Source: Planctomycetota bacterium
Lineage (GTDB): Bacteria; Planctomycetota; SZUA-567; H5-PLA8
DNA: 64,000 nt
Reading direction: 5' to 3'
Assembly: GCA_035628505.1 (NCBI GenBank)
Contig: DASPJR010000088.1
Coordinates: forward strand, 30,765-94,764
This document shows, in pieces, positions 23,343 through 43,100 of the stretch. Under the pieces are notes generated by a model. That model made no database searches. It worked only from the letters and a program-made list of their open reading frames with translations, and was not told the DNA's origin. How positions within the stretch are numbered: position 1 is the stretch's first letter; every line of letters starts with the position of its first letter. The translations under genes and the position numbers were made by a program.

Positions 23343-23512
23343 AGCCGGCCAGCCCCACTCGATTGAGGATTACATCGTGGGGTTGTATTTCCAAAGCGCA
23401 CTCGGCGCAAAGAAAATCATGTGATTCTGCGCTAAACATGAACACGCGCCGTTCATAACGCCAGTACTGCTCTGGGTGAATGCCATTGACGGCGTCGCCT
23501 GGATTGCGCGGT

Positions 23513-24007
23513 TCAGACTGAGATGAGTCTGAGAAGCCAATTAATAACCAGGGCGGCAAGCACCAGCGAGCCCGTGTAGACCTGCAGTCGTCTGGCCCAG
23601 TTCGCCTGCCGCGCGGCAGGGCGACGGTAGAGATAAAAGCGGAAGGGCACCTGTATGACGAAGAAGGCATACAGCAGCAATCCGACGCGGTTGCTTGAAA
23701 ATGAGTGCTCCAGCCGCCCATGCGTTAAGTGCACAAAAGCACGGGTCATCCCGCAGCCCGGGCATTCCGCGCCACACATTTTGCTGATGCACATCGGCGG
23801 CAGTTTATATCTGCCCAGAGATATTTCTTCAGAGTCCGCTTTGCCATTGAGCAGGAATGGCAGCGAGATCATGGCCAGGCTGATCAGAAAATACGTCAGG
23901 TGCGTGGCGCTATCCTGCGGCAAAGCTCTCTCGGGCGAGAAAGCTGCGCGCATCGACGCCGCCAGTCTCGAGATAACAGATGGTCTGCCGAGAGGTATCT
24001 GGTCCAT
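23513..24007 (-). CDS. DUF2752-family small membrane protein, last gene of the ubiquitin-like operon
   Basis: Signature CPGCGMTRAF followed by hydrophobic helices. The ORF-track start (24016) overlaps the E2 stop by 4 nt. An ATG lies 9 nt inside, at 24007. Confidence 0.55.
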   Translation of the reverse strand: MDQIPLGRPSVISRLAASMRAAFSPERALPQDSATHLTYFLISLAMISLPFLLNGKADSEEISLGRYKLPPMCISKMCGAECPGCGMTRAFVHLTHGRLEHSFSSNRVGLLLYAFFVIQVPFRFYLYRRPAARQANWARRLQVYTGSLVLAALVINWLLRLISV

Positions 24008-24012
24008 GCGAC

Positions 24013-24915
24013 TCACGAATTGACCATCACTGCGGGCGCGCAGCGTGTACAGAACATCTGCGAACCTGCGCCGGATTTCACTTTTTGAATGTGCTCAAGG
24101 CATGTGGATTTGCCGCACGCCTGGCACTCCACGATGCAGTCCATGCAGCGGCTGTGTTCGCAGATACTGCAGCGGGCCTGGTGGCGCATGCAGGTTGTCT
24201 GCTGACAGGAGGCGCACTTCATGGCGCATTTCTGACACGTGACTGCCTTGCAGCTCGCGCAGGTCAGCAGCGCGCATTTCAGACAGACGACGGCATCGCA
24301 GAGCTGGCAATGCAGCTTGCAGTTCTCGCAGCAGACGTGGCTGTTCAGACAGACACTCATGCTTTCAGTCGAGCCATTCTTGCCGCAATTGGCGCATGTG
24401 TCGCCAGCGAGCATCTTCCCATCGCTCGACCGGCCGACGGCCTCACCGACGGCAAGCATTGAACCGAAGTCGAACGTGTCCAGGGGCAGCGAGGCACTGT
24501 TCTCTTCGACCCACTTCGCCGCCTCGCCGTTCAATGGGCTCTTCACGTTGTAGGACTGATACGAGAGCATCTCGGCGATGCGTACGATCAGATTTGCCAG
24601 CGATTCGCCGGCCGCCCAGTGATCGCCGATGCAGATCGCATGCGGCGCAATGTTGGGATGAAACACCGGGGTCAGCATCCGGCACTGCGGCGCCAGGCGC
24701 GGGTACGCGGCAGTGAGGTTGATCTCCACAAGGAACGTGTTGCGAATATGGATCTGCCCATCCATTGCTTTTTCGAGCCCTTTGACGAGGTACTCGATCT
24801 GGTACTTTTCAGGCGGATCCCCAAGCGATTTCTTGATGTGTATGCGCGACTTCTGCGTAAACAGTGTGCACAGACGGTCGTAATCGGCCTTCAAGCGGCG
24901 CAGCCTGACGCTCAT
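24013..24915 (-). CDS. Ubiquitin-conjugating enzyme E2 (UBC fold) with a cysteine-rich C-terminal tail
   Basis: N-terminal helix RLRRLKADYDRL. Core YPRLAPQCRMLTPVFHPNIAPHAICIGDHW...SPLNGEAAKW aligns to the eukaryotic E2 HPN-x(5-6)-ICL-x2-W...SPLN pattern, with a catalytic Cys. The C-terminal ~115 aa contain ~27 Cys in periodic C-x2-C / C-x4-C spacing. Its start overlaps the upstream protease stop (ATGA). Confidence 0.8.
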   Translation of the reverse strand: MSVRLRRLKADYDRLCTLFTQKSRIHIKKSLGDPPEKYQIEYLVKGLEKAMDGQIHIRNTFLVEINLTAAYPRLAPQCRMLTPVFHPNIAPHAICIGDHWAAGESLANLIVRIAEMLSYQSYNVKSPLNGEAAKWVEENSASLPLDTFDFGSMLAVGEAVGRSSDGKMLAGDTCANCGKNGSTESMSVCLNSHVCCENCKLHCQLCDAVVCLKCALLTCASCKAVTCQKCAMKCASCQQTTCMRHQARCSICEHSRCMDCIVECQACGKSTCLEHIQKVKSGAGSQMFCTRCAPAVMVNS

Positions 24916-26222
24916 TTTTCGAGCCCCTCGATCGTGTTCGGCATGAAGTACTTTTCCCGCTCAGCGGGGCTGAGCAGCTTTACGAAGCTCGGCGTAGAGA
25001 TGGCGAAGTTGATGCCTTCTGTCGTGGACTTGTCATGTGTCCAGGTGTTTACGCCGACCAGCATTCCGTCGGAAGCGTACAGACCGCCGCCGCTGTTGCC
25101 CTGGTTAATCGGCGTCTGCGTCTGATAAATTTCCATGGACTGATTGCCGAGCTTACTCGTGCGTACGCCGGAGATAATGCCTTCCGTATAGGACCACGAC
25201 AGTGAAACGGGATTGCCTATCGCAAAGACTTTTTCTCCCGGCGACAGCACGCGCGGCGAGATCTGGATGGGCTTGTATTTGTCCAGCGTGAGCGCCTGGC
25301 AGCCCACGATCGCCAGGTCGACTGCCTCATCCCCTGACCATTCAACCACGCCACTGCTTTCCTCGCCGTTATAGAAGACAATGCGAAGATCGCTGTTGTC
25401 CTTCTTGTCTCCGGCTACGTGCTTGTTTGTCAGAATGTAACACTTGCGATCCTGGCTCTTCAATATCACCCCGGATCCGAAACGCATGCCTTCAAGCACG
25501 CCCGCGTTGTTCTTGATAATCACGTTCGCCCGCATGGCATTGGCAGCGGGTGCAGGCATGCTCTGCAATTGCTGCTCTGAAGGCAGGTTTTCATTCAGCC
25601 GCATATCGGCAGTCTGCTGGCTGGCCGTGTGTTTATGGGCGTAGGCAAGGTAAGCGAAATAGAAAATGAGCAGCAGTCCCGGCGCGCCGATGGATGAAAT
25701 TGCCAGCGGCATTCCACTGCGTCTGTTTTCTGGCGTCGTGATAATAACGAGTGCGATCACGCCCAGCACGGTGGCCGCCAGGCACAGCATGATTCCAAGA
25801 ATCACCAGCTTCTGGTGCCCTGCTACTGCTCCCAGCAACCCAATGGCGCTGAGGCCCGCAACAATCGCTCCGGCGACAGCCAACCGGCTCGTGCTGACAG
25901 GGCCCTTGGGCATGAATGAGGCCGCCACATCCTGCGGCGCCTGCCGGGCCGGGCGCACGGGCACTGTAATATTCGCCAGTTCGTCTTCACGAATGACGAT
26001 GTCCGGCTGGGCGTTGCCGGCGGTCGTGCGCACGGCCGTGTCACAGTGATACGACGCGCAGCCCTGCTTGCGGGCCCAGCAGGTGTCGTGATGAATCGCC
26101 CCGCAGTCGTTGCAGAAGCAGACCATCTGGCCAACGTCCACGGGGGCCTGGCAATACGGGCACGTGTTGCCGGAGTGAAACGTATTGGCGACAATCGGCC
26201 GTGATGGTGCGGAGGTCTTCAT
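24912..26222 (-). CDS. C4HC3 zinc finger + transmembrane segment + trypsin-like (S1, HtrA-like) serine protease fusion
   Basis: N-terminal CPYCQAPVDVGQMVCFCNDCGAIHHDTCWARKQGCASYHC. Two hydrophobic helices. A catalytic-domain-like region follows: ILTNKHVAG...DLAIV...GNSGGGLY (Ser nucleophile context GNSGG). Probable start at the internal ATG 26222. The ORF track extends to a GTG at 26297 that overlaps the upstream gene. Confidence 0.65.
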   Translation of the reverse strand: MKTSAPSRPIVANTFHSGNTCPYCQAPVDVGQMVCFCNDCGAIHHDTCWARKQGCASYHCDTAVRTTAGNAQPDIVIREDELANITVPVRPARQAPQDVAASFMPKGPVSTSRLAVAGAIVAGLSAIGLLGAVAGHQKLVILGIMLCLAATVLGVIALVIITTPENRRSGMPLAISSIGAPGLLLIFYFAYLAYAHKHTASQQTADMRLNENLPSEQQLQSMPAPAANAMRANVIIKNNAGVLEGMRFGSGVILKSQDRKCYILTNKHVAGDKKDNSDLRIVFYNGEESSGVVEWSGDEAVDLAIVGCQALTLDKYKPIQISPRVLSPGEKVFAIGNPVSLSWSYTEGIISGVRTSKLGNQSMEIYQTQTPINQGNSGGGLYASDGMLVGVNTWTHDKSTTEGINFAISTPSFVKLLSPAEREKYFMPNTIEGLEK

Positions 26223-26230
26223 CGAGGCTC

Positions 26231-26842
26231 TCAATCGAAGAGAATCATCAAACCCATCAGGAGCAGCAGAAAACCGCTGATCCCGACAGAACACCACACC
26301 AGAGCTTTGAGTGTGGACGGCAGGCGGCGATAGTCAATACCCATGAATTCCTTCTGGTAGATAAGGACTCCGTTGAGTACCAGTGCCAGAGGTGACAGAC
26401 ACGCAGCTGCCGACAGAAGGAACAGGCCGACAACTTTGTTTCGCGCCGCGTTGTACTCTTTGCCCTCATATTCCCGCGTGAGGTACTCTTCTTTGCTCAC
26501 CACATCGCGTGTTTCAAATGACGCGCCGCAGAAGCGGCACTTGAGCGCCTGCCCCTTGATTGTTTTGCCGCATGCCGGGCAGGGCTTCTCGCCAGCCCAT
26601 GCATTGGTGACGGGCAAGCCCTCTGCATGTTTTGTTGTTTTAGGCGTGCATTCACAGCCATAGGCCGAGCAGCCGCCGTTTTCTTTCCAGCACTCCGTAT
26701 GAAATGGAAGGTTGCACGCCGGGCAGTAAACAATGCGTTCGCCGGCAATCACGCCGGTCTGGCAGATCGAACACAGCTTTCCTGCCGTGCTCGTGCCGGC
26801 CTCAAACTCCTTGGGCAAAGCAGCGGGTTCGGGAGCAGACAT
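26231..26842 (-). CDS. Membrane-anchored C4HC3 (RING/PHD-like) zinc-finger protein with an extra C-terminal zinc ribbon
   Basis: CSICQTGVIAGERIVYCPACNLPFHTECWKENGGCSAYGC, then CPACGKTIKGQALKCRFCG, then two C-terminal TM helices. ATG at 26842 (GGGGAGA upstream) lies 7 nt after the upstream gene's stop. Confidence 0.6.
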   Translation of the reverse strand: MSAPEPAALPKEFEAGTSTAGKLCSICQTGVIAGERIVYCPACNLPFHTECWKENGGCSAYGCECTPKTTKHAEGLPVTNAWAGEKPCPACGKTIKGQALKCRFCGASFETRDVVSKEEYLTREYEGKEYNAARNKVVGLFLLSAAACLSPLALVLNGVLIYQKEFMGIDYRRLPSTLKALVWCSVGISGFLLLLMGLMILFD

Positions 26843-26849
26843 GGCTGTT

Positions 26850-27578
26850 CTATCTCCCCTCGGCCGCAAGACGGATCAATGTAAAGACTGCCTGTGAAAC
26901 CAGGGAGATCAGCAGCAGCTTGCCGCCCTTCTTCTTTCCCTGCACCATCCAAACAATCGCCATGATGCAAGCAATGCCGCCGCACAGAATGCCGAAGGCG
27001 ATTTCCGCACCGGTGAGATTCTCATCATCATCAGCCCCCGCCTGGAGCTTTTTCTGCCTTTCGCGATCCACCGGATCCTGGTACTCGCCGCAAAAGCGGC
27101 ACACGCGCGCTTTTTTCTGAATCTGCTCGCCGCACGAGACACATTCTTTTGTGTCTCCAGCAGGAGCCGAAACGACCGTTCCAATGGCTGCGGCGGACGC
27201 CAACTTTGGCTGCGACGGGCAAGCTGGATGCCCGCAGGCACCTGCTTTCTCACGGCAGGCCTGATGCATGGTGCTGCCGCAGCTCTGACAGTTGCAGACG
27301 TCATCGCCCAGTTCGATTGCAACCGAACAGGACGGACAGGTGCGGCCAAGCAGAGCCTTGTTCGCCTTCATGCGTTCAGGGAAAAAGGGCGGGCCGGGCG
27401 GCGGAGGCAGAGACGGCGCGCCATGAGACGGCGTCAGCGCAAGCGGGTCGGCCGTCAACGGCGGTGCGGCTGCAGCAACGGGCTTGGGAAGTTCCGCTCC
27501 ACAGTACATGCAGGAATTGCTTGTGTTGACTGCAACATTCCTGTCGCAGCTCGTGCACCGGACCGTTTCCCTGTTCAT
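26850..27578 (-). CDS. Membrane-anchored C4HC3 (RING/PHD-like) zinc-finger protein with flanking zinc ribbons
   Basis: CTSCDRNVAVNTSNSCMYCG (ribbon), then CPSCSVAIELGDDVCNCQSCGSTMHQACREKAGACGHPAC (C4HC3), then CVSCGEQIQKKARVCRFCG (ribbon), then a C-terminal TM segment. ATG at 27578. Confidence 0.6.
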   Translation of the reverse strand: MNRETVRCTSCDRNVAVNTSNSCMYCGAELPKPVAAAAPPLTADPLALTPSHGAPSLPPPPGPPFFPERMKANKALLGRTCPSCSVAIELGDDVCNCQSCGSTMHQACREKAGACGHPACPSQPKLASAAAIGTVVSAPAGDTKECVSCGEQIQKKARVCRFCGEYQDPVDRERQKKLQAGADDDENLTGAEIAFGILCGGIACIMAIVWMVQGKKKGGKLLLISLVSQAVFTLIRLAAEGR

Positions 27579-27610
27579 TTCCCCTCTCCCCTGCCCCGCA
27601 TTCAAACGTC

Positions 27611-28690
27611 TCAGGCGCCCTTTGTCTTTTCCGAATATTTCAACACGGCTTCGCCGAGTGAAATGACATCGTTGGATTGAAGCACGTACTTGTCGATGGC
27701 CTTGCCGTTCACGAAAGTTCCCTTGCCGCTGCCTTCATCGGTCAGGATGTATTTGCTGCCGGATTTCATGACGGTGGCGTGCAGCGGCGCAATGTCCGGG
27801 TCCTTGAAAAGGTAAATGTCGGACTTGGGAGACGAACCGATCAGCATCGGATTTTTGAAGACAATGAATTGTTTTCCCGTCAGCGGGCCTTTCAGCATGA
27901 GAAACCAGGCTTCCTTGGACAGGTTTTCGAAGAGCCCGATGAAGATGCCAACGAAGAGTGACACCGCAAAGATGCCCACGAATCTGCTCACGGAACCATC
28001 CGAGGCCTGTCCGAGCACAAAGCGGCTGATGGGATCAAAAAACAAACCGCCGATCAGTCCGCCAATCATTCCCCCGACAAAACCATTCAGCACAAGCTTT
28101 TTGGATTTCAGCGCAATCCCCAGCCCCATCCCCGCGCCCATGCTGACGACCGACCACGCGATAGCCCGCCCGCTCATGAAGATGACGAACGACATGCCTT
28201 TTAACGGAAACTCGCCCGGCGCAGGCGGCGCCTGATTGCGCATGAAAGCCACCGCAATCATGGACGTGATTCCGAAGAGAATATCCGCCACGATGGTGGT
28301 CAGCAGGGTGACGACCAGTCCGACGCCCATTCCCACCGCGCCGCAATAGAGCACCTGTTTCCAGTTGCGATTCATCAATCCGTAAACGGTGCCAATAGAA
28401 AGGCCGAGCGCAGCAGCAACCGGCCCGAAGAGGAGATAATCGGAGACGAAGGGAATCCCGCGCGAATGGCCGTGGTCGCCTTCCCTGTTATACGGTTCAG
28501 TGATTGCCCATACCGTCACGCCGCCGATGACCGAAGCCACTGAGTAATAGAAGATCGGGTTGTAGTAAAACGGCGTCTTAACGTCGGCAGTCTGCTGAGC
28601 GGCCTGGGGCTGCACGGAGCGATGCAGCGCCAGCACATCGTCGATGGCCGGGTCGCGCAGATCGTCTTCCGAAATCATGATGTCGGGCAT
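27611..28690 (-). CDS. Polytopic membrane protein with a C-terminal FHA domain
   Basis: At least six hydrophobic helices, followed by GKQFIVFKNPMLIGSSPKSDIYLFKDPDIAPLHATVMKSGSKYILTDEGSGKGTFVNGKAI...LQSNDVISLG. This is the classic FHA pattern (GR/SxxD..L.D..VS..HA.I...Y.L.D.GS.NGTFVNG). ATG with a GGAGAGGAGA RBS. Confidence 0.7.
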   Translation of the reverse strand: MPDIMISEDDLRDPAIDDVLALHRSVQPQAAQQTADVKTPFYYNPIFYYSVASVIGGVTVWAITEPYNREGDHGHSRGIPFVSDYLLFGPVAAALGLSIGTVYGLMNRNWKQVLYCGAVGMGVGLVVTLLTTIVADILFGITSMIAVAFMRNQAPPAPGEFPLKGMSFVIFMSGRAIAWSVVSMGAGMGLGIALKSKKLVLNGFVGGMIGGLIGGLFFDPISRFVLGQASDGSVSRFVGIFAVSLFVGIFIGLFENLSKEAWFLMLKGPLTGKQFIVFKNPMLIGSSPKSDIYLFKDPDIAPLHATVMKSGSKYILTDEGSGKGTFVNGKAIDKYVLQSNDVISLGEAVLKYSEKTKGA

Positions 28691-28716: not shown

Positions 28717-30021
28717 TTATTTCTTGCTGGGAATCGCGCTGCCGCTTGCGGCGGGCGCGGCCTTTTGTTCCTTGCCATACAGAATTTCCAGCGCCCGCGG
28801 CATCTCCTGTTCGAGGATGGGCTTTATGCCAGGGGAAATACGGAGTGCATTTTCAAGAATCCGGCGTGCTGTTTCCTTTTCCAAGTCGCCAAATTTGGAC
28901 GGATCGGCTTCGTACGGCTTGATGATTTCGCTGGCGCGCTGAACGTACAACATCGCCACAGCCGCGCTCAGTTCATCCTGGTGACGTGACGTAGCAGCGA
29001 CGCGCTGGCTGAGGTTCTGCCGCGAATTCATCATCTGCTCGATGTCGTCGCGGAACTTCGTTCGAGATTTGTTGTAGTGCTGCTCCAGCTTCGCCAACTG
29101 ATCCGTAAGTGCTTTAAGCTCGGTTTGTGCGGCGGCGTCACCAGCCTTGACCTTCTCTCCGATGGTCTGCATTTTTTCACGAATTTCCGCGAAGTCGCGC
29201 GAAGCAAGCGCATTAAGCGCGCTGAATTCGACAATGGAATAGATCTCGCTTTCGAGACTGGCCGTCACTTCTTTCCGGATATCCTGCACCGCCTGGTAAC
29301 GGCCCAGCATCAGCCCGCAACCGAGCGCCACCAGCATGAAAATAAGGGTGGTCAGAAAGCCGGGACCGCTTTCGCCGGAGGAATACTGCACGGGGGTGTC
29401 GTAAGTCGCCGCAGGCTGAGCCGAGCGCCCAGCGGAATTCATCGGCTTGGGACCGTCAACTTCAACAGGCTCGGCAATGCCTGTCGCAAGCTTGATCTGC
29501 CGGCTGCCAACCCAGTAGCGGGACAGGGGCACGCTCTTGCCTTCAATCCAGGCAAAGCAGCCTTCCTCATGCTTTTTCGTTTCAATGACGATTGCGACCT
29601 GGTACGGGAGATTGAAGAAGTTCTCCTGGATGAACATGTCCATTCCGGAAAGGAACACGCCGAACCCCGGATGCGTGTGGTACCAGCCGACGATGCGCTG
29701 TTTGGGATATTCCTTGTCTTTGATGCTGTTGATGTGGTCCCACGTCTGGTGCGTGAAGGTCACCTGCGCGCCGTAATTGTTCGAATGAAGCCCTTCGATG
29801 ACCGCGGTGATGCACAGAAAATAACCTTGCGAATCGCGGCACACGTCTCCGATCAGTACGCCGCACAGCTCGACTTCATTGGTCGTGTTCGCGTGGCTTT
29901 TCATCCGCTCATAGGCACGCTCGTCGATGTGCACGCGGTATTCCGAGGCAATCTGTGTCGGAAAGACCGCCTCTCGCGCATCCTTTTTTTCGATATTTGA
30001 ATAGTCCAGAGTCGCGGCCAT
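28717..30021 (-). CDS. JAB/MPN (JAMM) metalloprotease with a TM helix and a coiled-coil C-terminal extension
   Basis: Perfect JAMM motif: upstream Glu (NEVELCGVLIGD) and HTHPGFGVFLSGMD (H-x-H-x7-S-x2-D). TM helix GFLTTLIFMLVALGCGLMLG. C-terminal ~200 aa are helical and charged. Confidence 0.8.
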   Translation of the reverse strand: MAATLDYSNIEKKDAREAVFPTQIASEYRVHIDERAYERMKSHANTTNEVELCGVLIGDVCRDSQGYFLCITAVIEGLHSNNYGAQVTFTHQTWDHINSIKDKEYPKQRIVGWYHTHPGFGVFLSGMDMFIQENFFNLPYQVAIVIETKKHEEGCFAWIEGKSVPLSRYWVGSRQIKLATGIAEPVEVDGPKPMNSAGRSAQPAATYDTPVQYSSGESGPGFLTTLIFMLVALGCGLMLGRYQAVQDIRKEVTASLESEIYSIVEFSALNALASRDFAEIREKMQTIGEKVKAGDAAAQTELKALTDQLAKLEQHYNKSRTKFRDDIEQMMNSRQNLSQRVAATSRHQDELSAAVAMLYVQRASEIIKPYEADPSKFGDLEKETARRILENALRISPGIKPILEQEMPRALEILYGKEQKAAPAASGSAIPSKK

Positions 30022-30052: not shown

Positions 30053-31264
30053 TCACACGCGAATTTCTTTTCCTACATCACTCTCACGCCACGCTTCACC
30101 CAGCACCGCTTGCGCATCGCCGGAAAACAGATACGAAATGGAACGTTCTCCCTTGCGCGCGGTCACCACGTCAAAGCGCGGCGTTCCGATTTGCTCAAAA
30201 GTCATGTTGTCGATCGGAGCCGGCTCAAGTCCGAGCGTGTGTGTCAGTTCCGGAGCACGCATCTGCCCGCACTGCGGACATTTTCCTTCCGCTTCGGTCG
30301 TCTTCCCCAGTGAACGGAAAACGGGTTCGCTGGTCCCGCAGGCGGGGCAGTTGAGCGCCGTGAGAATATCCCGGCCGAGCTGCAGAACGGTGCCTTCGCC
30401 GAGCTCCGCGCGTGCGATCTTCAGAAGATCGGAGACTCTCATGTCGGCCACGCCAGCCTTCAGCCGCCGGAGATCCTGGTGCGGCTCATGGGCTGCACAA
30501 TCCGGCTTTCGCGTGTAAGCGACGGTGTACGATTCGGCGCTCAGGCCGTGATAAACGAACCCCTTGCCGCTGAGCGTCTCCATTCCATGCAGCAGCTTGA
30601 TAGCTTCCTGCATCTGCACCGCGGAGATAATGCTCGCGGTTGTCGGTGTCGTCGGGACTTTGCCTTCGTTCAGCTGGGTGCGTGTGAGCAGCGCGCAGGA
30701 GCGGCGGTTCTCAAGCATCTTCCAGTCTGTTGCGTTCATCGTACATTCGTAACAGGGGCCCGGCCCCGGCGCGAAAACGCGCGCCACGCCATCAAGCACC
30801 TCAATCGCGCCATCGATCCAGGGTTTTCCCGCAAACAGAGCAGCGCTGTTGATCGCCACGCGAGCCTCCCGATTGTCGAGGCCGCCGAGAATTACATCGG
30901 CCCAGAAATACACTCCGAGCCCAAGGTCATGAACAACGTTGCCGATGAATGGTTGCGCCCTGATCTGCGGATAAAGCTCCCGCGCCGAGCGGCAGGCGAT
31001 CTCGGCTTTGTATTTTCCATTGTCCGATTCACGGAAGAGCGGCGAGCGCGTGAGGTTTGAGTTTTCGATGCGGTCCATATCCGCGACCACGAGGTTGCCA
31101 ATACCGAGCAGCGCGCAATTCTTGACAATCTCATTGCCCAGCGCGCCGGCGCCGATAACAAGCACCCGCGCGTTCCGCAGACGGTTCTGGTCCCACCAGG
31201 AGATGAGCTCAAAGCGGCTGAAGCGGTGCTCTGGAACGGCCTCGCGAATGTTCAGGACGCTCAT
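30053..31264 (-). CDS. E1-like ubiquitin-activating enzyme (ThiF/MoeB/HesA family) with a C-terminal Cys4 extension
   Basis: Rossmann nucleotide-binding motif RVLVIGAGALGNEIVKNCALLGIGNLVVADMDRIENSNLTR. MoeB-like PGPGPCYECT motif. C-terminal CPACG...CPQCG zinc-binding pair plus an extra ~100-aa domain. Its ATG overlaps the Ubl stop (ATGA). Confidence 0.85.
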   Translation of the reverse strand: MSVLNIREAVPEHRFSRFELISWWDQNRLRNARVLVIGAGALGNEIVKNCALLGIGNLVVADMDRIENSNLTRSPLFRESDNGKYKAEIACRSARELYPQIRAQPFIGNVVHDLGLGVYFWADVILGGLDNREARVAINSAALFAGKPWIDGAIEVLDGVARVFAPGPGPCYECTMNATDWKMLENRRSCALLTRTQLNEGKVPTTPTTASIISAVQMQEAIKLLHGMETLSGKGFVYHGLSAESYTVAYTRKPDCAAHEPHQDLRRLKAGVADMRVSDLLKIARAELGEGTVLQLGRDILTALNCPACGTSEPVFRSLGKTTEAEGKCPQCGQMRAPELTHTLGLEPAPIDNMTFEQIGTPRFDVVTARKGERSISYLFSGDAQAVLGEAWRESDVGKEIRV

Positions 31265-31575
31265 GCGCAGCCTCGGCCGGCTTCGTGGACAGCGCGTCCG
31301 CCAGCCGTGATCTCCGGCTGAAGTCGAAGCACATCGCCATCTTTTACGCTGGCGCTCTGCAGCGTTTCTTCATCGAGCAGCTGGCGGCCGCTGGCCTTGT
31401 GGTGGAATTTGTAGCTCATGAGCTGCCCATCGGGACTGTGCCGCGGCAGGTTCATGCGTTCGACAAGCAGCACAATGATGCGGTTCACCGGCGCCGCGCG
31501 CGGCAGATTGACTGTCACCTTCTTGTTGCCGGTGGCATCCCAGACTTCAACATTCATGCCAGCTTCATCTGCCAT
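31261..31575 (-). CDS. Ubiquitin-like beta-grasp protein with a Gly-Gly followed by an 11-residue C-terminal tail (pro-Ubl)
   Basis: Start ATG 31575 with AAGGAG 10 nt upstream. Sequence MADEAGMNVEVWDATGNKKVTVNLPRAAPVNRIIVLLVERMNLP...GQLMSYKFHHKASGRQLLDEETLQSASVKDGDVLRLQPEITAGG|RAVHEAGRGCA parallels the secondary-structure order of ubiquitin. Its C-terminal half mirrors [29 protein letters not shown]. Its stop overlaps the E1 start. Confidence 0.75.
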   Translation of the reverse strand: MADEAGMNVEVWDATGNKKVTVNLPRAAPVNRIIVLLVERMNLPRHSPDGQLMSYKFHHKASGRQLLDEETLQSASVKDGDVLRLQPEITAGGRAVHEAGRGCA

Positions 31576-31613
31576 CTCTGGTGCACTCCTTCTGGTAAGC
31601 GTGTTCAAGGACG

Positions 31614-32684
31614 TTAAAGAGTCTTTATTGCATCAATGGGCCCGGCGAGTTCGCTTTCGGCGACGTACCAGCGGCCTTCTCCCCGAATCAATATTTTTCG
31701 AAATGCGCGCTTTTCGGTCCTGCGAATGACAAGGTAGACAATGGCGAAAATCAACGGGCTGATCACAAAAACAACGATCCAGGAAGGATAGCTCGTAAAG
31801 GTGATGTTTGCCTCGACCATGGCGACGCCACCGTGTTCGCTGATTGACTTCACTGAAGTGAGCTCGGCACTGCGGGCATGGCTGCTCGGACCCGTGAACA
31901 CCGATTTCCAGTACGCCTTGAAAGATTCGACATCCTTTATGTGAAACTGTCCGGCTTGAGATGGGATTTTCGGGTCGTTGAAAGTAAGGCTCGGCACCGG
32001 ACCAATGTTCCGTGCCGACGGAGCCAGACACGCGAACGCGCGCTCCGCGCGGTTGGTCGCAACGGCCGTATAGAAGCCCTTGAAGGCATGATGCGCTGTT
32101 AATGCGCCCGCAATCTTGTGCGTGATACTGTCGTTGTACCAGGACACACACACCGGAATCACAAAGATCAGGGTGCCGAGGATTCCGAATACGCCGAACG
32201 GAGCGCCATTGTCGCCTTTCAGCACGATGCCCGATACGATCGACATCAATGACAGTCCGAGCAGGCCCATGAGGACCTTGGTCTTTGTGGAAAGCAACGC
32301 ACCGGTCAACTCTGCATCGGCTGCCACTGCTTCCGGATTTGCGCTGTATTTTTGAACCTCAGCAACGCGCGCCTCAAGCAGCTGCCGCTGCTGCTCGGCG
32401 TTCAATTCACCTGCGATGGATTGCCGGCAAAGCGGACAGATCGCCGAACCGGCAGGGATCTGTTCGGCACACGCAGGACACTCGGTCATCTGTTGAGCGG
32501 TGACAGGCGGCGAAGAAATCGCGGGCGAATCTCGCAAGACAGCAGGTCCAGGCGAACCTTTGTCATCAGTGGTGCTCGGTGCCGTTAACTCTGCCCCGCA
32601 GACGGCACAGAGAACCAGACCACCGGCATTGAGATCATGTACGCGAAACGTTTTTCCACACTGGCATGAGACAGTAATTGGCAT
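31614..32684 (-). CDS. Zinc-ribbon membrane protein (first gene of the operon)
   Basis: N-terminal CQCGKTFRV...CAVCG and CPACAEQIPAGSAICPLCRQ ribbons, then four or five TM helices, then a C-terminal ~130-aa domain of unknown function. It lies 38 nt upstream of the Ubl gene on the same strand. Confidence 0.5.
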   Translation of the reverse strand: MPITVSCQCGKTFRVHDLNAGGLVLCAVCGAELTAPSTTDDKGSPGPAVLRDSPAISSPPVTAQQMTECPACAEQIPAGSAICPLCRQSIAGELNAEQQRQLLEARVAEVQKYSANPEAVAADAELTGALLSTKTKVLMGLLGLSLMSIVSGIVLKGDNGAPFGVFGILGTLIFVIPVCVSWYNDSITHKIAGALTAHHAFKGFYTAVATNRAERAFACLAPSARNIGPVPSLTFNDPKIPSQAGQFHIKDVESFKAYWKSVFTGPSSHARSAELTSVKSISEHGGVAMVEANITFTSYPSWIVVFVISPLIFAIVYLVIRRTEKRAFRKILIRGEGRWYVAESELAGPIDAIKTL

Positions 32685-32973
32685 ATGAAAAAACCTACTT
32701 TTCTAACAGGGTGCACAGCATTTTTTATATCAATAAATAGACTACTAGTTGCCACAAAGTATTGCAACCACTCAAATATATAGAATAAAAAGTAAACGAT
32801 ACTTTTGTATAAGTTATTGCTATGCAACAGCTTAAGCTTGCGTAACAGGCCAGGCACAAGGCGCTGCACCTTATGCGCGATTGTTTAAGGCAGTCTCGCA
32901 CACTCAATTGCGTAGATTCCTAAGTAACTTTGAATATTTAGTTTTAGGCTTCTACAAAGACCTGCCGAAGTAT
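32685..32973. promoter_or_regulatory. AT-rich (~37% GC) 290-bp intergenic island upstream of the ubiquitin-like operon
   Basis: GC content visibly drops compared with the ~60% flanks, with runs such as ttttttatatcaataaatagactactag and aaatatatagaataaaaagtaaacg. Candidate -35/-10-like hexamers on the minus strand are TTGCAA-17-TAGTCT and TTGATA. It lies between two minus-strand genes. Confidence 0.4.
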
Positions 32974-33924
32974 TTACTTAAGCAGTTCAATCTTTGCCGA
33001 ATCGTGAAGCGCCTTGATTTCAGCATCGCTTAGCGCGCGATTGAAGACTGCGAGTGCGCCGAATTTTCCGCGCGTCGCTTCATAAAACATGGAGCCTCCC
33101 GCGTAGCGCGCACCGATCGTAAAATCGGAGCCAGGAATCCTGGACTTTGCATGCGCTTCGGGATCGTAGCGGAAGATTCCACGTCCGTGATAGAACGGAT
33201 TCATTCCACGGTCTTTGCCGTCCGGACCTTCTTTGGTGAAGTAGCGGTCGTTGCGCTTGTCTTTCACGGGATCCAGTTCGCGCACATCCAGCACGCCGTT
33301 GATGTACGCGCGGATATATTTTGAGTCGTACGTAAATGCCAGCGTGCACCATTTCTCTTCGGGAATTTCCTGCTTCGAAGCCGCGTAGTCCGCGCACCAC
33401 GGCAGCGCACTGCCGTCCGCCCGGCGCGTTACGCCGCCCTCGCTGGAGATGTGCGGCGTCAGCTGGCGGTTGCCGCCATACGCAGGCATGTGCATCAGCA
33501 TGGCATACTGCCGCGTGCCAGTGTCGTCGTGAGCGCCTTTTCCTTCGCTCCACATTCCGGCGATGGTGCGGCTCTTGTTCACGTTGACAATGCGCACGAC
33601 GGTGAACATGGTCACCTGCGCATCCTTGCCGCTGATGTTGAGATCGCCCGTTTCCGCATACGGGATGCGAAAATATTGCTTGCCATTCATTTCCGCCGAA
33701 TACCCGGAATACGGACCGCCTTCAACGCGCGGAATAGGCCCGCCGACCTCAAGCAGCGGGTGCTTTTCCTTTGTACCGCTCGACACGCGCTGGCCGGGCT
33801 CTTCACCGAACGTCCAGAAGGCAACGAGATTCGGCGTTTTTTCAACCACCGACCGGTCGCCGACGGGTTCAGCCGCTTGTGCAAGCACCACAAACGCCAC
33901 AGCAACGGCGATAACGTTTTTCAT
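32974..33924 (-). CDS. Secreted hypothetical protein (possible concanavalin/LamG-like jelly roll)
   Basis: Signal peptide [18 protein letters not shown]. 316 aa. I cannot assign a family confidently. Confidence 0.45.
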
Positions 33925-34131: not shown

Positions 34132-37100
34132 TTACCGCTTGCCGTCTTTCGCCTGGCCGGCATTCGGCGTTGCATCGTACGATTCGGTCTGGATGGTCTG
34201 GTAAATCGCGTTGTTGAAGTAGATGCGTACTGGAAGCATCAGCGTCTTGTCTTTCACCGGCGTGTTGGTCAGTCCGTACGGCTGCAGTGTTGAGACCAGG
34301 TCTGCCTTCTTCAGTGAGATGCGGAACTTAATCGAGCGTGCCTTCTCGCCGCGCGTACGCATCGACAGATAGTCTGTGCTTGTCAGAACGCGGCCCTTCG
34401 GATTCAACGTAAAGCTTCTCGTGACGCCTGCCACATCCATGATGCAGGTCTGCGTTCCCAACGTGAAGCCATCGGGCACGCCGAAAGTTCCGCTAAGTGT
34501 CAGCTTGTCATTGCTCGTGCGCACAAAATTAAGCTTGATGAGCAGCTTCGCATCGAGGAGCAGTTGCGGCGGCGGAGCCGTGGTGCCGAATGGCGTTTCC
34601 GAAGCATTCGTGGACGACGATCCCGCGACCACTTCGACCGAGTCCGGGAAGCCATCGTTGTCGCTGTCCACCTGGACAGGGAACGGCAGCGCACCGCCTC
34701 CGCCGCTGGCCACCACCAGCATCGTCAGCGTCGCGCTCGTTGAGAGTTTCGCGCCGTTAGTGATGACCACGGTCACCTTGTACGTACCGAGCGATGTGTA
34801 GGTGTGCGTCGGGCCCGGCAGCGTGCTCGTCGAGCCGTCACCAAAATCCCACGCGTAGGTCAAACTCGAGGGCACCTGGTCGGTTGCGCCCAGCGCGAAC
34901 GATACTGGCGCGCCAGGAGTGGCCGGATTGGGTGTCGCCGCAGGCTGGGAAACAACGACCGGCGCGACGGCTGTCACGTTCAGTGCGACAACACTGCTAA
35001 CTGTCTTGAAGTTCACGGTATCGTTCGGCGTGAACGTTGCTGTCAGCGGCTGGCCGTTACCGGTTCCAAGAATGGTGCCGCTGGCGGGCGAGTACTCGAA
35101 CGTTCCCGGCACATCCGCGGTCGCATTTAGTTGCAGACCGCTTAAAGCCGTGCCCGTCTGTATATCCGCCGGAGTAGCCCACGTGATGACTGGCGCTGCT
35201 TTCTGCACGTTAATCAGCACCGTTGCAGTGATTGTGCTCGGCTGAATCGTGGAATCGGCTGCAGTGAACGATACAAGCAGCGTCTGATTGGCGCCGGCAT
35301 TCAGCACCGTTCCGATGGCAGGCGTGTAGGTGAATGTGCCAGGCGTGTTGGCGCTCGCGTTCAATTCAGCGGCACTTAGCGCAGTGCGGTACAGGATATC
35401 AGCCGGATTGTTCCACGTAATCACCGGCGTGGCGTGCACCGTCAGTGTAAAGAGCTGCATGTCATCGACCGGCACACCATTGCTCGCCGTAAAGATAAGC
35501 GTATACGTCCCGGACGTTCCCGACGCGGGCGTTCCGGAGAGTTCGCCTGTGAGAGCGTTGAACGTCATGCCTGCCGGAAGGGCGCCGCTCAGGCTTAGTG
35601 CCGGCTGCGGAGAACCCGTTCGGACAACCGTGAAGTTGCCGGCACTTCCGATCGTGAAGGCCACATTGTTGCCGCTGGTAATCGCCGGCGCCTGGTTCAC
35701 GGTCAACGTGAACGCCTGGGTGGCGACAACTCCTACTCCGTTGCTGGCGCTGAAGGTCAAATTGTAAACCGCCGCCGTCCCGGCTGCGGGCGTGCCGCTG
35801 AGAACGCCGGTCGCGCTGTTGAACGACAGCCCGGACGGAAGCGTGCCGGAGAGGCTTAACACCGGAGCCGGCGAACCATCCGCTGTGACGCTGAAGCTTC
35901 CGGCAGCGCCGACCGTAAACGCTGCGTTGTCGACACTCGTAATTCCAGCCGGCCGGTAAACCGACAGCATAAAATTCTGAATCGAGTCCGGTCCGATTCC
36001 GTTACTGGACGTGAACACGATCGGGTAATCCCCGCCGGTGCCCGCCGCGGGAGTTCCCGACAGCAGTCCCGTCGCCGGATTGAACGTAACGCCTGTGGGC
36101 AGCGCGCCGCTCTGTGAGAGCGTCGGTGCTGGTTCGCCGAGCGAAGTGACACCGAAGCTGCCGGCGGCACCTTCGGTGAAGATCGTGCTGGCCGCGCTGG
36201 TGATCGAGGCCGGTTGATTGACGATCAGGCTGAAGTTCTGAATTGCTGCCGATCCCACTCCGTTGTCAGCGTTGAGCGTGAGATTGTACGTGCCTCCCGT
36301 TCCTGTCGCTGGATTGCCGCTCAGCACGCCGGTGGCCGCATTGAAGCTTACGCCCGTCGGCAGCGTGCCGGTCAGTGTGAGTGCTGGAGCCGGCGATCCG
36401 CTGGCAGTCATCGTGAAGCTGTTTGAACTGCCTACCGTGAAAGTCGTGGTGTTGGCGCTGGTGATCGCGGGGACCTGGTTGACCGTTAACGTAAAGTTCT
36501 GAACATGCGGCGTGGCAACGCCGTTCTGCGCCGTGAACGTCAGCGGATACGTTCCAGCCGTGCCCGCCGCAGGCGTTCCGCTCAGCACGCCTGTAGATGC
36601 ATCGAAGGATACGCCATTGGGCAACGTGCCGGAGAGGCTCAGAAGAGCGGCGGGGTAACCGCTGCGCGTCACGCTGAAGCTGCCGGCCGATCCGACCGTG
36701 AATGTCGTATTGTCGGCGCTGGTCACCGCCGGCGCCTGTTCGACCGTCAGCACGAAATTCACCACAGAATCCGAACCGACGCCGTTCGCTGCCGTGATCG
36801 TGAAGTTGTACACGCCGCCTGTTCCGGCTGCCGGCGTGCCGCTCAGGGTGCTGCCAACAAAGGTGACGCCTGTGGGCAGCGGACCTGTCAGTGTGAACGT
36901 CGGCGCCGGCACGCCAGTCGCGGTGACCACGAAATTGCCCGCAGTCCCCACCCGGAAGGTTGTCGCCGTACCGCTCGTGATATTCGGAGCCTTGTTGATA
37001 ACCAGGGTGAAATTCTGCACGGCATTGACGCCGACGCCGTTGGCTGCAGTGAACGCGATATCGTAGCTGCCGGAGGTTCCCGCCGCTGGAACGCCGCTGA

Positions 37101-40100
37101 GCACCGGCGAGTTGAACGTGATGCCGTTGGGCAGCGTGCCAGTCATCGTGATCGTCGCCGCCGGCGCAGCGGAGGCCGTAACCGTAAAGCTTTCCGTGTC
37201 GCCTTCAGTAAAGCTGATCGTGGCCGGACTCGTGAAGTACGGAGCCTGGTTCACAATCAGTGTAAAGTTCTGCACAGACGGCGAGCCGACGCCATTCTGG
37301 GCGGTGAACACCGGCGAGTATGTTCCAGCCGTTCCCGCGGCTGGCGTGCCGCTGAGGATTCCGGTCCCGGCGTCGAAGGAGACGCCCGTCGGCAGACTGC
37401 CGGTCATGCTCAATGTCGGCGTAGGCGAACCGACCATCGTAATTGAGAAACTGCCGGACGTGCCATCCGTGAAGGTCGTTGTATTAGCGCTGGTGATCAC
37501 GGCAGCCGTATTGATCGTCAGGACGAAAACCTGCGTATTCGTACCGACTCCATTATTGGCTGTGAATGAGAGGTTGTAGTCACCCACCGTTCCGATCGCC
37601 GGTGTACCGCTGAGCACGCCCGAGGCCTGATCGTAACTGACGCCTGACGGAAGCGCGGCACCGCCGATCGTTATGGTCGGGGCCGGCGTACCGGTCGCGG
37701 TGACAGTGTGGCTGCTGAACACGCCCACAGGGAATGCGACTGCCGCGGCGCTGGTGATCAGCGGGCGTTGATTGACAACAAACGTGAAATTCTGCGTCGT
37801 GCTGCCGCTGCTGTTGACAGCGGTAAAGATGAGATTGTATGTGCCGACCGTTCCAGCCGCCGGCGTGCCGCTCAGGACGCCAGAGTTCGTGTCGAACGAA
37901 ACGCCCGTCGGCAGGTTGTCGCCGCTGCGCGAGAGAACGGGTGTCGGCGTTCCGTTGGTATTGACTTGGAAGCTTCCGGAGACTCCGACGGTGAACGCCG
38001 TCGAGCTTGCGCTGGTGAAATCCGGCTTCTTGTTGATTGTCAGTGTGAAGTTCTGGTTTACCGATGTCACCGAATTGGTCGCCGTAAACACCAAGTTGTA
38101 GACGCCGACTGTCGCCGGGCCGGGCGTTCCACTGAGCACGCCCGAGCCGTCCAGCGTGAGTCCTGCCGGCAGAGGCGTACTGGTGATGACCGGCGTTGGC
38201 GTGCCGGTGGTCAGCACGGCAAAGCTGCTGTTGACGCCGACCGAGAAGATCGTGTTATCCGCGCTGGTGAATGCCGGCGCCTCGTTAATGGTCAGAGTGA
38301 AGCTCTGCACGGCATTCGATCCCACGCCGTTGCTCGCGGTGAAGACCAGGATAAATGTTCCGGTTGCAGTGGGAGTACCGCTCAGCGTGCCTGTGCCCGG
38401 ATCGAAGGTAATCGTTCCCGGCAGCGCCGCGCCGGAAATGGCAAGCGTCGGTGCAGGAGATCCTGTCGCGGTCACGTTAAAGCTACCCAGCGAGCCTACC
38501 ACGAAGGTTGCATTATTGGCGCTCGTAACGGCCGGCGCCTGATTGACCGTCAGCGTGAAATTCTGCGTGACGGTCAGACCGACGCCGTTCTGCGCTTCGA
38601 AAACAAGATTGAACGTGCCGGCGGTGCCCGGCGCGGGTGTTCCGCTGAGCACTCCTGAAGCCGCGTCAAAAGTCACTCCTGCCGGCAGAGCCGCTCCGAT
38701 CTGATTGAGCGTGGGAAGCGGGAAGCCCGTGCGCGTCACCGTGAAGCTGCTGTTCGTTCCGACGGTGAAGGTCGCGCTGGTTCCACTGGTGATCGCGGGA
38801 GGCTGGTTAACCACCAGCGAGAACGACTGCGTCGCGAAGGGATTGACGCCGTTGATTGCACGCAGGTTCAGCGGGTAAACGCCGCCAGTTCCCGCCGCCG
38901 GTGTACCACTCAGCAGACCCGCGCCTGTCAATGTCACGCCCGTTGGCAGCGTGCTGACGGTTGAGAAGGTCGGAGCCGGAGTACCGCTGGCCGTCACGTT
39001 GAAGCTGCCGTTTGTTGACGTCACAAAGGTAGTGGTGTTGGCGCTGGTAAACGCCGGCGCCTGGTGGACCGTGAGCGTGAAATTCTGCGTCGCCGCCGTT
39101 CCGACTCCATTGCTGGCCGTGAATACCAGACTGTACGTGCCGTTTGTATTGAGGTTCGGTGTCCCGCTCAGGATACCTGATGCGGGGTCAAACGTTACCC
39201 CGGCCGGAAGAGCGGCGGACTGGCTGAGCACTGGTGCCGGGAATCCCGTCTTCGTAACAGCAAAGCTGTTGGTGGAGCCCACCGTGAAGATGGTGTTGTC
39301 GGCACTGGTGATGGCTGGCGCCTGGTTCACTGTAAGAGTGAAATTCTGTGTGGCATTCGAACCAATTCCATTGCTGGCGGTGATGACAACCGGGTACGTG
39401 CCGCCCGTTCCCGCTGCGGGGGTTCCGCTGAGTACGCCGGCCGCTGAAAGCGACACGCCGCTGGGCAGCGTGCTGCTGGTGCTGAACGTCGGCACGGGTG
39501 TTCCCGTGGCGGTGGCGGTGAAGCTTCCGGCGGCTCCGGCGATAAACGTGGTCGACGTTCCACTCGTGATGGCCGGTGCCTGGTTGATCGTCAGCGTGAA
39601 GTTTTCGTCGACCGTATTCAACACGTTCGTTGCGCGGAAGACGATGTTGTAGACGCCGTTGCTATTGACCGGCGGCGTGCCACTGAGAACGCGTGTCGCT
39701 GAATCGTAGCTGAGACCCGAGGGCAGCGTCGACTGAAGAGTTACCGACGGGACGGGGAAGCCATTGACCTGCAGCGTATAACTGTTGGATACGCCTGTCA
39801 GGAAAGACGTGCTGGTCTGCGCGAAGCTCGGCGGCTGCTGCACAGTCAGCGTGAAATTCTGCGTGGCGTCTGCGCCCACGCCATTCTGGGCAACGATCAG
39901 CAGCGGGTAGCTTCCGCCGGTAGTGGCCTGCGGCGTGCCGCTTAGCACACCGGCGGCGGAGAGCGTGACTCCCGCTGGCAACGTGCTGTTCGTGAAGAAC
40001 GTCGGGACCGGCGTTCCGGTTGCCGTAACCGTGAAGCTGCCGGCGTTGCCTGTCTCGAAGGTCGTGGATGCAGCGCTTGTGATAGCGGCAACCTGTCGCA

Positions 40101-43100
40101 CAGTGAGTGTAAAGTTCTGTACAAAATCAGGACCCGCGCTGCTGCTGGCCGTAAACGTCAGATTATAGACGCCATTCGTGTCGGTTGCCGGCGTGCCGCT
40201 CAGGACGTTTCCAGAGAAGCTCAGGCCGGAAGGCAGCGTCGCGCCACCAATCGCGATGGTCGGCGTCGGCCGCCCGGTGGGCACGACGGTAAAGCTGCTC
40301 AGCGTCCCCGTGGTAAAAGCGAAATTATCGGCACTCGAGATTCCCGGCACCTGATTGACCACGACGGTAAAGCTCTGCGTGGCATCCGCACCCGCGTCGC
40401 TGGAAGCCGTAAAGGTGACGGTGTAGTTTCCCGCCGTGCCGGCGGCCGGCGTGCCGCTCAACACGCCCGTGGCCGGCACAAAGGTCAGGCCCGAAGGCAG
40501 CGTGCCGCTCATGCTTAGTGTGGGTGTGGGCGAGCCGGTCTTAGTGACAGTAAAGGAGCTGAACGCGCCTACGGTAAACGTGCTCGTGTTAGCGCTCGTG
40601 ATCGCCGCAAGCTGCTTGACTGTGATCGAGAAACTCTGCGGTGCGGCTGAACCGGCGCTGTTCACGGCATTGATGGTGAGCGGGTAAATTCCCGGGGTCG
40701 CGGTGGTGGTTCCACTGAGCAACCCGCTGCCCGGATCGAACGTGAGACCCGCGGGAAGTGTGCCGCTGATCGAGAGCGTCGGGGTCGGGATGCCGACGGC
40801 GGTCACGGTGAAGTTTCCAGCGACTGTCCGTGTAAAGTTCGCGCTGGCGGCGCTGGTGATCACCGGCACCTGGTGAACATTCAGGACGAAGTGCTGGGTG
40901 GCATTTGTGCCGACGCCGTTGGAGGCGGTGAAATCGATGTAGTACGTGCCGCCGGCAGTGCCGGCCGCAGGCGTTCCGCTGATCACACCATTTGAGTACG
41001 TCACGCCAGTGGGCAGCGTGACATTTGCGGCGCTCAGCGTCACCGGCGTCGTGCCGACGGTGGTCACTGTGAATGAGCCGGCCTGGTTCATGATGAACGT
41101 GGCGCTTGCAGCGCTGGTGATTGACGGCGGCTCGTTAACGGTCAGCGTAAAGTTCTGTGTAACCGGTCCGCCCACGCCATTGTTGGCACTGAAGACCAGA
41201 TTGTATGTTCCCGACGAGCCCGACACAGGATTTCCGCTGAGCGCGCTGCCGTTGAACGTGATTCCCGCAGGCAGTGCCGGCGTCGACGAGGAGAGCGTGA
41301 TCGTCGGTGCCGGAGGTCCGCTGGCCGTGACGTTGAAGCTGTTGGCGTTGCCGACTGTAAACGTCGTGCTGGTGCCGCTCGTGAAGAGCGGCGCTTTGCC
41401 AATATTCAGAGTGAAATTCTGGAAGGCGTCGAGGTCCGCGCCGGCGCTCGTGGCTTTGAAGACGAGCGCGTAAACGCCAGCCTGGGCGACGGTAGGCGTT
41501 CCACTCAACGTACCGCTGGTCGGATTGCCCGCCGCACCCGGAGAGAACGTTACGCTCGCCGGAAGCTCCGGCGTCGAGCTCTGCAGGCTCAGCGTTGAAT
41601 TTCCGGTGCCCAGCGCCGTGACGGTGAAAGTCCCGGCCTGTCCTCCCACGAACAACGTGTTGTCGGCTGAGGTGATATTCAGCGTGGCCTCGATAGACAT
41701 ATCGTTGCCCGTTCCGCCCGTGTATCTCAGCCTGAAGTTTTTTCCACCTAGATTAATAGAATTGTTGTTCGCCACGCCGTTGACCGTGCCGGTGATAGCG
41801 TCGGCGGCATCATTGGTAATCAGCACCAGTGGCGTACCGTTGGTCACGTTGAATCCAGCCGCCAGGTTGCCAGTCATCAGCGCGCCGGCGCCGAATGTCA
41901 TGCTGCCGGTCAGGTTGATGTTTCCATACTGGCCCGCCGAGTTCCCGTTCAACGTCGTATTCAGCGTGCCTGACGCAGCGATGCTCAGGTTGCCGGTCAC
42001 ATTCAAGGTCTGCGTTCCGAGCGATAGCGTGCCGAAGGTCGCGGATGTACCGTTTGCCGTCAACGTTCCGCCGAATGACGCATTGCCGCCGCTGATCGAC
42101 AGGGAGGGAGCGACAGAAATCACGCCGATGCCACCGGTGCCAGTCAGGCTGATCGTGCCCGGCTGCTGGTTGGTGACGCCGGCGCCATTGCGGATCTGGG
42201 CCGTGAGCAGGCCGGTTCCAAGCGTTAGAATGGCGCCGCCGCTGGTCGTAATATTTCCTGCGCCCGCGTCGCGTTCGGCGTTGATCACACCGTTGGCGAG
42301 CACGTCGTTGGCGATGAGGGTCAGCGAACCATTGTTGGTATTGATGTGGGCATTGATAAGGATGCTGCGGCCGGCCTGCAGCGTCAGGCTTCCACCCGCC
42401 GGCGAGGTGACGGTAATCGGGTCGCTCACCGTGATGTCATTATTGGCCTGCAGGACCACGGACGTTCCGGCCAGGAGCGAGCTGGTAATAAAGGAGGGGG
42501 GAATTGTCAGTGTCTGTGACTGCTTGAAACGGTAAGTGTAGTTCTGGCCCCTGGAAGAGCCGCCGCGGACAATTCCGCTCTGCACGGCCCCATCCGTATC
42601 GTTGATGAACGTGGCGATAATGGACTGGCTCACCGTGTCTTCAAAGACGCGGTTGAGCTGCGTGAAAGCCCCGCCGCCGACGATGCTGTTCAGCGTACTG
42701 ATCGGACCGAAACCAGTTACCGTCTGGCCTGTCTTGCCGTTCACCCAAGTCGCCGCGCCCGCTCCGCCATTGCTGCCGTTCTTGAAGTTGGGCGTGACCA
42801 ACACGTAGTCGCCGTTGCTGAGCACGACCGGGTTGCCCATCGAAGGAACAGACACGCCTGTGAAGAAGTCCGTTGCATTCTGAAACGTTCCTACATTGTC
42901 GCGGTGAAACGGGCTGGACGTCGCGGTCGCACCGATCACGCTATTCGTCGCGGAGATCGCGCCCGAAATACCCGTGGTGCCACTGCCCCAGGTTGCGGCT
43001 CCCAGACCGTTGTTCCAGTTATAGGAGCCGACCACGTAATCTCCCGTCGGCAGCACGCACACTCCAGGATCCGAACCGCCGCCACTGATGCCGACCTTGT

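Follow-up and report, generated by a model that had tools for sequence, protein, structure and literature searches.

An AT-rich non-coding spacer as the probable promoter and leader region of a planctomycete ubiquitin-like conjugation cassette

Interest in bacterial cassettes that combine E1, E2, RING, JAB and ubiquitin-like (Ubl) proteins comes from their kinship with the eukaryotic ubiquitin system. Prokaryotic Ubl-conjugation operons with genes for an E1, an E2, a RING-type E3 and a JAB protein were described from comparative genomics by Iyer et al. (2006; PMC1779556), and the same operon type, with E1, E2, RING, JAB and Ubl genes, was described by Burroughs et al. (2011, as cited in PMC7159879 and PMC11354881). 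The passages of this literature that were available to us, which did not come from a targeted search on control regions, deal with the proteins, and in them we met neither an account of the upstream regions nor a description of how bacterial Ubl cassettes are switched on.

The locus considered here lies in a 64,000-nt sequence from a Planctomycetota MAG with an overall GC content of 0.592, referred to below as the window. It contains a block of tightly packed genes, all on the minus strand, in which Ubl, E1, E2, RING and JAB genes are co-directional, and this cassette belongs to the already described type of bacterial Ubl-conjugation operon with a RING E3. In the order in which they would be transcribed, its genes are as follows.

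31614..32684, minus strand: first cassette gene, encoding a 356-aa protein with two N-terminal Zn-ribbons and TM segments (ZnR-TM; weak DZR match; start ATG at 32684)
31261..31608, minus strand: YukD-like ubiquitin-like protein (Ubl; YukD Pfam match)
30053..31264, minus strand: E1-like ThiF adenylyltransferase (ThiF Pfam match)
28717..30021, minus strand: JAB/MPN peptidase (JAB Pfam match)
27611..28690, minus strand: FHA-domain protein
26850..27605, minus strand: Prok-RING_1 protein
26231..26869, minus strand: second Prok-RING_1 protein
24912..26297, minus strand: Prok-RING_1 fused to a trypsin-like serine protease
24013..24915, minus strand: E2-like (UQ_con) protein, 300 aa
23513..24016, minus strand: DUF2752 membrane protein (4-nt overlap with the E2 gene), probably the last gene of the unit

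The Pfam assignments have E-values of 1.9e-10 for YukD, 1.3e-49 for ThiF, 8.9e-11 for UQ_con and 1.6e-13 for JAB, and the Prok-RING_1 matches in the cassette reach 3e-8 and 2.1e-10. As far as the operons are described in the passages at hand, the cassette shares with them the YukD-like Ubl, the ThiF-type E1, the UQ_con E2, Prok-RING_1 and JAB, and differs from them by the addition of the FHA protein, the RING-trypsin fusion, the DUF2752 protein and the leading Zn-ribbon membrane protein. PADLOC returned only domain-level matches to the E1 and the JAB protein, and the cassette is therefore not a member of a catalogued defence system. The E1 family is large, with at least 5,262 members at E<=1e-100. 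The ZnR-TM family is rare, with only 3 matches in a search of 5.8 billion proteins. Since the N-terminus MPI[TS]V.C.CGK.F.V.D is kept in nearly all ZnR-TM homologs, the ATG at 32684 is taken as the true start; the public annotation gives the product as a 307-aa 'RING finger protein' from a TTG start that is 49 codons too late. A weak Shine-Dalgarno-like AGTAGG lies 9 nt before this ATG (within 32685-32710, minus strand), and clear GGAGG or AAGGAG sites precede the ZnR-TM gene in most sister loci.

A preliminary description of this DNA had pointed to an AT-rich island of about 290 bp, with a GC content of roughly 35-40% in a sequence of about 60%, lying between minus-strand genes and directly upstream of the ubiquitin-like operon. 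The island measures 289 nt, with a GC content of 0.370, and minus-strand genes do adjoin it on both sides. It stands at the head of the cassette as claimed, but the gene that it adjoins encodes the Zn-ribbon membrane protein, and the Ubl gene comes second. The island and its upstream neighbour are laid out as follows.

32974..33924, minus strand: LamG-like secreted protein, 316 aa, the upstream neighbour (only a short Laminin_G_3 match)
32685..32973, no strand: AT-rich non-coding spacer
32900..32960, minus strand: AT lobe B, directly after the LamG-like stop codon (40-nt GC 0.28-0.38; weak AU-rich hairpin)
32838..32900, minus strand: core of normal GC content (0.57-0.65; a 10-bp hairpin on the minus-strand RNA, without a U-tract)
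32700..32835, minus strand: AT lobe A, adjoining the cassette start (40-nt GC 0.20-0.38)

The sliding-window check that had been proposed for the island identifies it as the lowest-GC stretch of the 64 kb. Among all 289-nt windows (mean 0.592, sd 0.041) the spacer region, about 5.4 SD below the mean, is the only one with GC below 0.45, and the minimum is 0.363, at 32666; in windows of 150 nt the lowest value is 0.287 (z = -6.1, percentile 0.0001). The window has 15 further spacers that reach 80 nt or more, and their GC contents are 0.45-0.63, so AT-richness is not a generic property of intergenic DNA here. The spacer is an ordinary kind of feature, but a real and clearly delimited one, and it is unique in the window.

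Related cassettes were collected by a genome scan based on the E1 protein, which gave 25 loci whose genes were mapped by tblastn. Gene order is shared across these loci (ZnR-TM, Ubl, E1, JAB, FHA, RING, RING, RING-trypsin, E2), and in some of them the first cassette gene is a ZnR-TM homolog; the RING/FHA/E2/DUF2752 order of the window (23513-27605) is kept in L006, L018, L028, L037 and L039-L041. The upstream neighbour of the cassette is different in every locus examined: a divergent membrane protein in L004, an MtnA-like gene in L006 and, in L022, a glycosidase-like gene with about 760 nt of non-coding, AT-rich DNA after it. Because the order within the cassette is conserved and the upstream neighbour varies, the unit appears to start at the spacer and the ZnR-TM gene. 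A scan of metagenomes with a ZnR-TM alignment yielded only 5 loci, most of them with little upstream DNA.

An AT-rich patch lies within about 300 nt of the ZnR-TM ATG in all eight of the closest ZnR-TM-led relatives with upstream DNA (E1 62-80% identical). The position directly upstream of ZnR-TM is where the 150-nt GC content reaches its locus-wide minimum in L003, L022 and L004 (E1 80, 76 and 70% identical), with z-scores of -2.8 to -4.1, and L006 has a z-score of -3.0 directly upstream of the same gene. In the variants L007 and L011, in which Ubl comes first, the locus-wide GC minimum is just upstream of Ubl. Four further loci (L037, L039, L040 and L041), picked afterwards by E1 identity alone (70-73%) as an independent test set, all have an AT patch at most about 220 nt from the ATG, with minimum GC contents of 0.37-0.42 and z-scores of -2.3 to -3.7, behind four different upstream neighbours; no other stretch of the L040 locus has a GC content as low as its patch, and in L041 the patch shares the locus-wide minimum. 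The window's island is the most extreme AT patch among the compared cassettes. The more distant cassettes L002, L005, L028/L030 and L031 have no such patch, which indicates that the system does not require it.

No common motif was found to accompany the recurrence of the patch. Motifs of 7-12 nt (0-2 mismatches) are shared among five islands only at the level of shuffled sequences, and in a MAFFT alignment of the spacers conservation is found from the ATG onward only. Judged by these comparisons, composition is what the islands have in common, and not sequence. An apparent scaling of island GC with host GC was dropped, the correlation being weak (r about 0.4, n = 9).

The lack of any conserved sequence, motif or structure among the islands is what would be expected of a neutral spacer that had decayed under a general mutation bias from GC to AT, its composition being unselected, and the dips in the sister loci are shallower (z -2.3 to -4.1) than that in the window. 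In any genome, spacers that carry promoters tend to be richer in AT than genes are, and some of the recurrence would therefore arise without special selection. Against neutral decay, however, the 15 other spacers in the window remain at 45-63% GC, and eight relatives, whose neighbouring genes are unrelated, have a dip at the same position. We consider an unselected composition rather improbable, and infer that the AT-richness is under selection and that transcription starts inside the spacer.

The reading that we prefer, to which we assign a probability of about 0.6, is that the island is the promoter and 5'-leader spacer of the Ubl-conjugation cassette, its AT-richness being kept as a compositional trait and not as a sequence. 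The island would hold the promoter of the unit headed by the Zn-ribbon membrane gene (start at 32684), along with a 5' UTR that is short and has little structure, and would separate this unit from the unrelated LamG-like gene upstream. Low GC content would then be a maintained property of the control region, serving easy melting of the DNA, the binding of an AT-preferring protein, or both. Within the island, the promoter and 5' UTR most probably lie in lobe A; the GC minimum in the relatives likewise lies at most about 300 nt from the ATG. The 76 nt before the ATG fold less stably than shuffled sequences (z +1.45), as expected for a translation-initiation region. A unit that starts at the Zn-ribbon membrane gene, with an AT-rich, sequence-variable leader in its closest relatives, offers a defined fragment for reporter and pull-down work, and beyond this practical value the island is ordinary.

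Operon promoters and upstream regions in GC-rich bacteria can be AT-rich, with sigma-70 sites and UP-like AT tracts, and the rules for planctomycete promoters are poorly defined. The island resembles such regions in that it is non-coding, lies upstream of the first gene of a co-directional block and is the most easily melted DNA nearby, and the homologous spacers of relatives carry sigma-70-like -35/-10 pairs. It differs from them in that the window's copy has no significant -35/-10 pair and no significant phasing of A-tracts, which was tried as a sign of curvature and rejected (P about 0.11). The earlier suggestion of a strong promoter or UP element is supported by the position of the island, by its recurrence in relatives and by the promoter-like signals there, but not by a statistically supported promoter in the island itself. 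Promoter prediction on the minus strand, proposed as a check, found no sigma-70 consensus site in 32400-33200 (-35/-10 pairs with at least 9/12 matches, 16-18 nt apart; 1.1 expected), while the same scanner, applied to the L028 spacer at the homologous position, yields an 11/12 site. Scans of both strands of the island for sigma-54 sites (GG-N10-GC, TGGCAC-N5-TTGCW) and for the ECF pattern GGAAC-N15-18-CGT(C/T) were also negative; sigma-54-like strings had been seen, with the wrong spacing, and the scan with exact spacing found none. The best candidate of the sigma-70 type is the following.

32724..32732, minus strand: extended -10 TGaTATAAA, with a poor -35 (GCAACT); the -10 ends 39 nt before the ATG

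This candidate, whose score is equalled or exceeded in 48% of dinucleotide-preserving shuffles, is a lead only, not a finding.

In L028 (8393-8489) the site TTGACT-18-TATAAT, with 11/12 matches where 0.1 such sites are expected, lies behind a terminator-like hairpin with a T-run and 124 nt before the ZnR-TM ATG; this spacer is not AT-rich. L028 shows that predicted sigma-70 consensus promoters serve the cassette in at least some hosts. The homologous spacer of L004 contains TTTACC-16-TATTAT. L037 (about 4395-4450) and L039 (about 4270-4325), with E1 proteins 87% identical to each other, can be aligned upstream only over a block of 54 nt (76% identity). In it, a conserved TGGAACA is followed by 15 variable nt, a conserved TATAAGTAAT and then CAGTCTTCGCT. 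Judging from its layout, this block looks like a promoter footprint, with a putative -10 about 74 nt before the ATG.

No intrinsic terminator (a GC-rich hairpin with a U-tract) was found after the LamG-like gene, and read-through co-transcription of the cassette from that gene is therefore possible. The LamG-like gene is not regarded as part of the cassette, because its relatives sit in unrelated contexts. More than 970 homologs with 70-90% identity occur in Planctomycetota and Verrucomicrobiota, and this conservation is unusually high for a protein of unknown function. The comparison of syntenic regions that the preliminary description had called for could be made with the LamG-like relatives of 83-90% identity; it is a weak test, since no orthologous site without the cassette was found among these unrelated contexts. 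The spacers downstream of these relatives have GC contents of 0.50-0.64 and none is AT-rich, so the island goes with the cassette and not with its neighbour.

Another possibility raised by the preliminary description was that the island marks an insertion boundary, in which case it would be a scar, or foreign DNA carried along at the junction of a horizontally acquired cassette, with no function of its own. Junctions of genomic islands have att sites by tRNA genes, an integrase and flanking direct repeats. The island is like them in bordering a block that has different neighbours in different genomes, and the cassette itself occurs in Planctomycetota, Verrucomicrobia, Victivallales, Anaerolineales and Bacteroidia, that is, also outside Planctomycetota, which suggests transfer between phyla. 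By its presence in several phyla and its differing neighbours, the cassette clearly appears to have been mobile over evolutionary time. The locus differs from such junctions in other respects. There is no direct or inverted repeat that pairs the island with the 3' end of the cassette (23300-23560), integrase genes are absent from the window, no transposase adjoins the cassette, and neither a tRNA nor a tmRNA gene was found in the window. The composition of the cassette is not deviant: its genes have GC contents of 0.556-0.602 and GC3 of 0.62-0.77, and its tetranucleotide signature (r 0.949, compared with 0.95-0.97 for other segments of the window) is host-like.

Searches for the island elsewhere also speak against a scar. 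There is no second copy in the window (only 11-nt chance matches), plasmid records gave one 31-nt chance match and phage records none, and signs of an IS element or MITE (terminal inverted repeats, multiple copies, similarity to known elements) are lacking, the short inverted repeats not being nested. The GC content of a neutral remnant should moreover have approached that of the other spacers (45-63%). On the other side are a large serine recombinase upstream of the cassette in one relative and a tRNA-Val gene in another, which hint at occasional site-specific mobility; an adjacent tRNA was found in only 1 of the 25 loci scanned. What stands of the insertion-boundary claim is the position at the 5' edge of a cassette with variable neighbours, and the signs of an insertion event in the window do not; we regard a functionless scar as unlikely.

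Several observations on the wider set of loci and on the neighbourhood may be recorded here. The recombinase, a 536-aa protein, is encoded two genes upstream of the cassette on the P0128 contig (E1 71% identical), and the tRNA-Val(TAC) gene (L031, 689-763) lies 32 nt upstream of a distant cassette. Related E1/Ubl/JAB cassettes, with E1 identities of 36-64%, are those of L024 and L026 (Bacteroidia), L010 and L021 (Anaerolineales) and L005 (Victivallales). Among cultured planctomycetes, Aeoliella straminimaris (L013) and Aquisphaera giovannonii (P0215) have related E1 genes, and L013 gave no ZnR-TM match. The neighbours of the window's cassette are the LamG-like gene, a giant Ig-repeat protein and a cytochrome-c protein. 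The giant protein is encoded beyond the LamG-like gene by an ORF of 4115 aa (34132-46479, minus strand). It consists of about 20 He_PIG Ig-like repeats together with 10 DUF5650 repeats and a PKD domain, and within the window this ORF is the outlier in tetranucleotide signature (r 0.85-0.91, compared with about 0.96 elsewhere). A 27-nt imperfect direct repeat between the two lobes (32769-32795 and 32901-32927; 19/27) is matched by 4.3% of shuffles, uncorrected, and was not taken as a site pair.

That the island might hold a small RNA had also been suggested, and a structured cis-regulatory leader such as a riboswitch or attenuator belongs to the same class of explanation. The minus strand of the whole spacer folds slightly more stably than shuffled sequences (z -2.17, 7/200), but the plus strand does not (z -0.69), the hairpins of the core and of lobe B are individually not significant (z -1.35 and -1.46), and the part proximal to the ATG is less structured than shuffles. 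No terminator was predicted, and covariance models of Rfam 15 gave no match at E<=1 on either strand of 32300-33300. Since the relatives are not alignable, structure has no support from covariation, and the spacer shows neither the clearly low folding energy nor the covariation of a novel structured RNA. The small-RNA suggestion was not borne out, and an RNA element of either kind seems highly improbable. Three similarly spaced inverted repeats (I3, I5 and I8) were rejected as they were not nested and gave no significant fold, and a set of TTGC/GCAA half-sites, a GTTGC-N11-GCAAC dyad and the palindrome TTGCATAGCAA were set aside because they were not enriched (7 observed, 5.3 expected, P 0.25).

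A small protein-coding gene is barely credible as the content of the island. An ORF of 60 aa exists mechanically (32725-32907, minus strand), but it starts with TTG, the composition of its product is the default of AT-rich DNA, and tblastn found no homolog in any sister island; the island is otherwise full of stop codons in all six frames.

The promoter-and-leader reading leaves room for a more specific role of the low GC content. Xenogeneic silencers such as H-NS, Lsr2, MvaT and Rok have AT-rich targets, and the island, at 0.370 compared with 0.592, is markedly AT-richer than the genome. It resembles their targets in lying 22 GC points below the genome at the putative promoter of a cassette that is accessory and mobile between lineages, and differs from them in that the AT-rich part is only about 290 nt long and the coding DNA of the cassette is not AT-rich. 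We know of no silencer protein in Planctomycetota. It is conceivable, if decidedly doubtful, that the AT tract is a compositional silencing platform coated by an AT-preferring nucleoid-associated protein, of a kind undescribed in this phylum. Such a platform would explain why composition, and not sequence, is conserved at the spacer across unrelated genomic contexts, and a costly eukaryote-like ubiquitination system, possibly one of conflict or defence, would then be kept off until a signal relieves the silencing.
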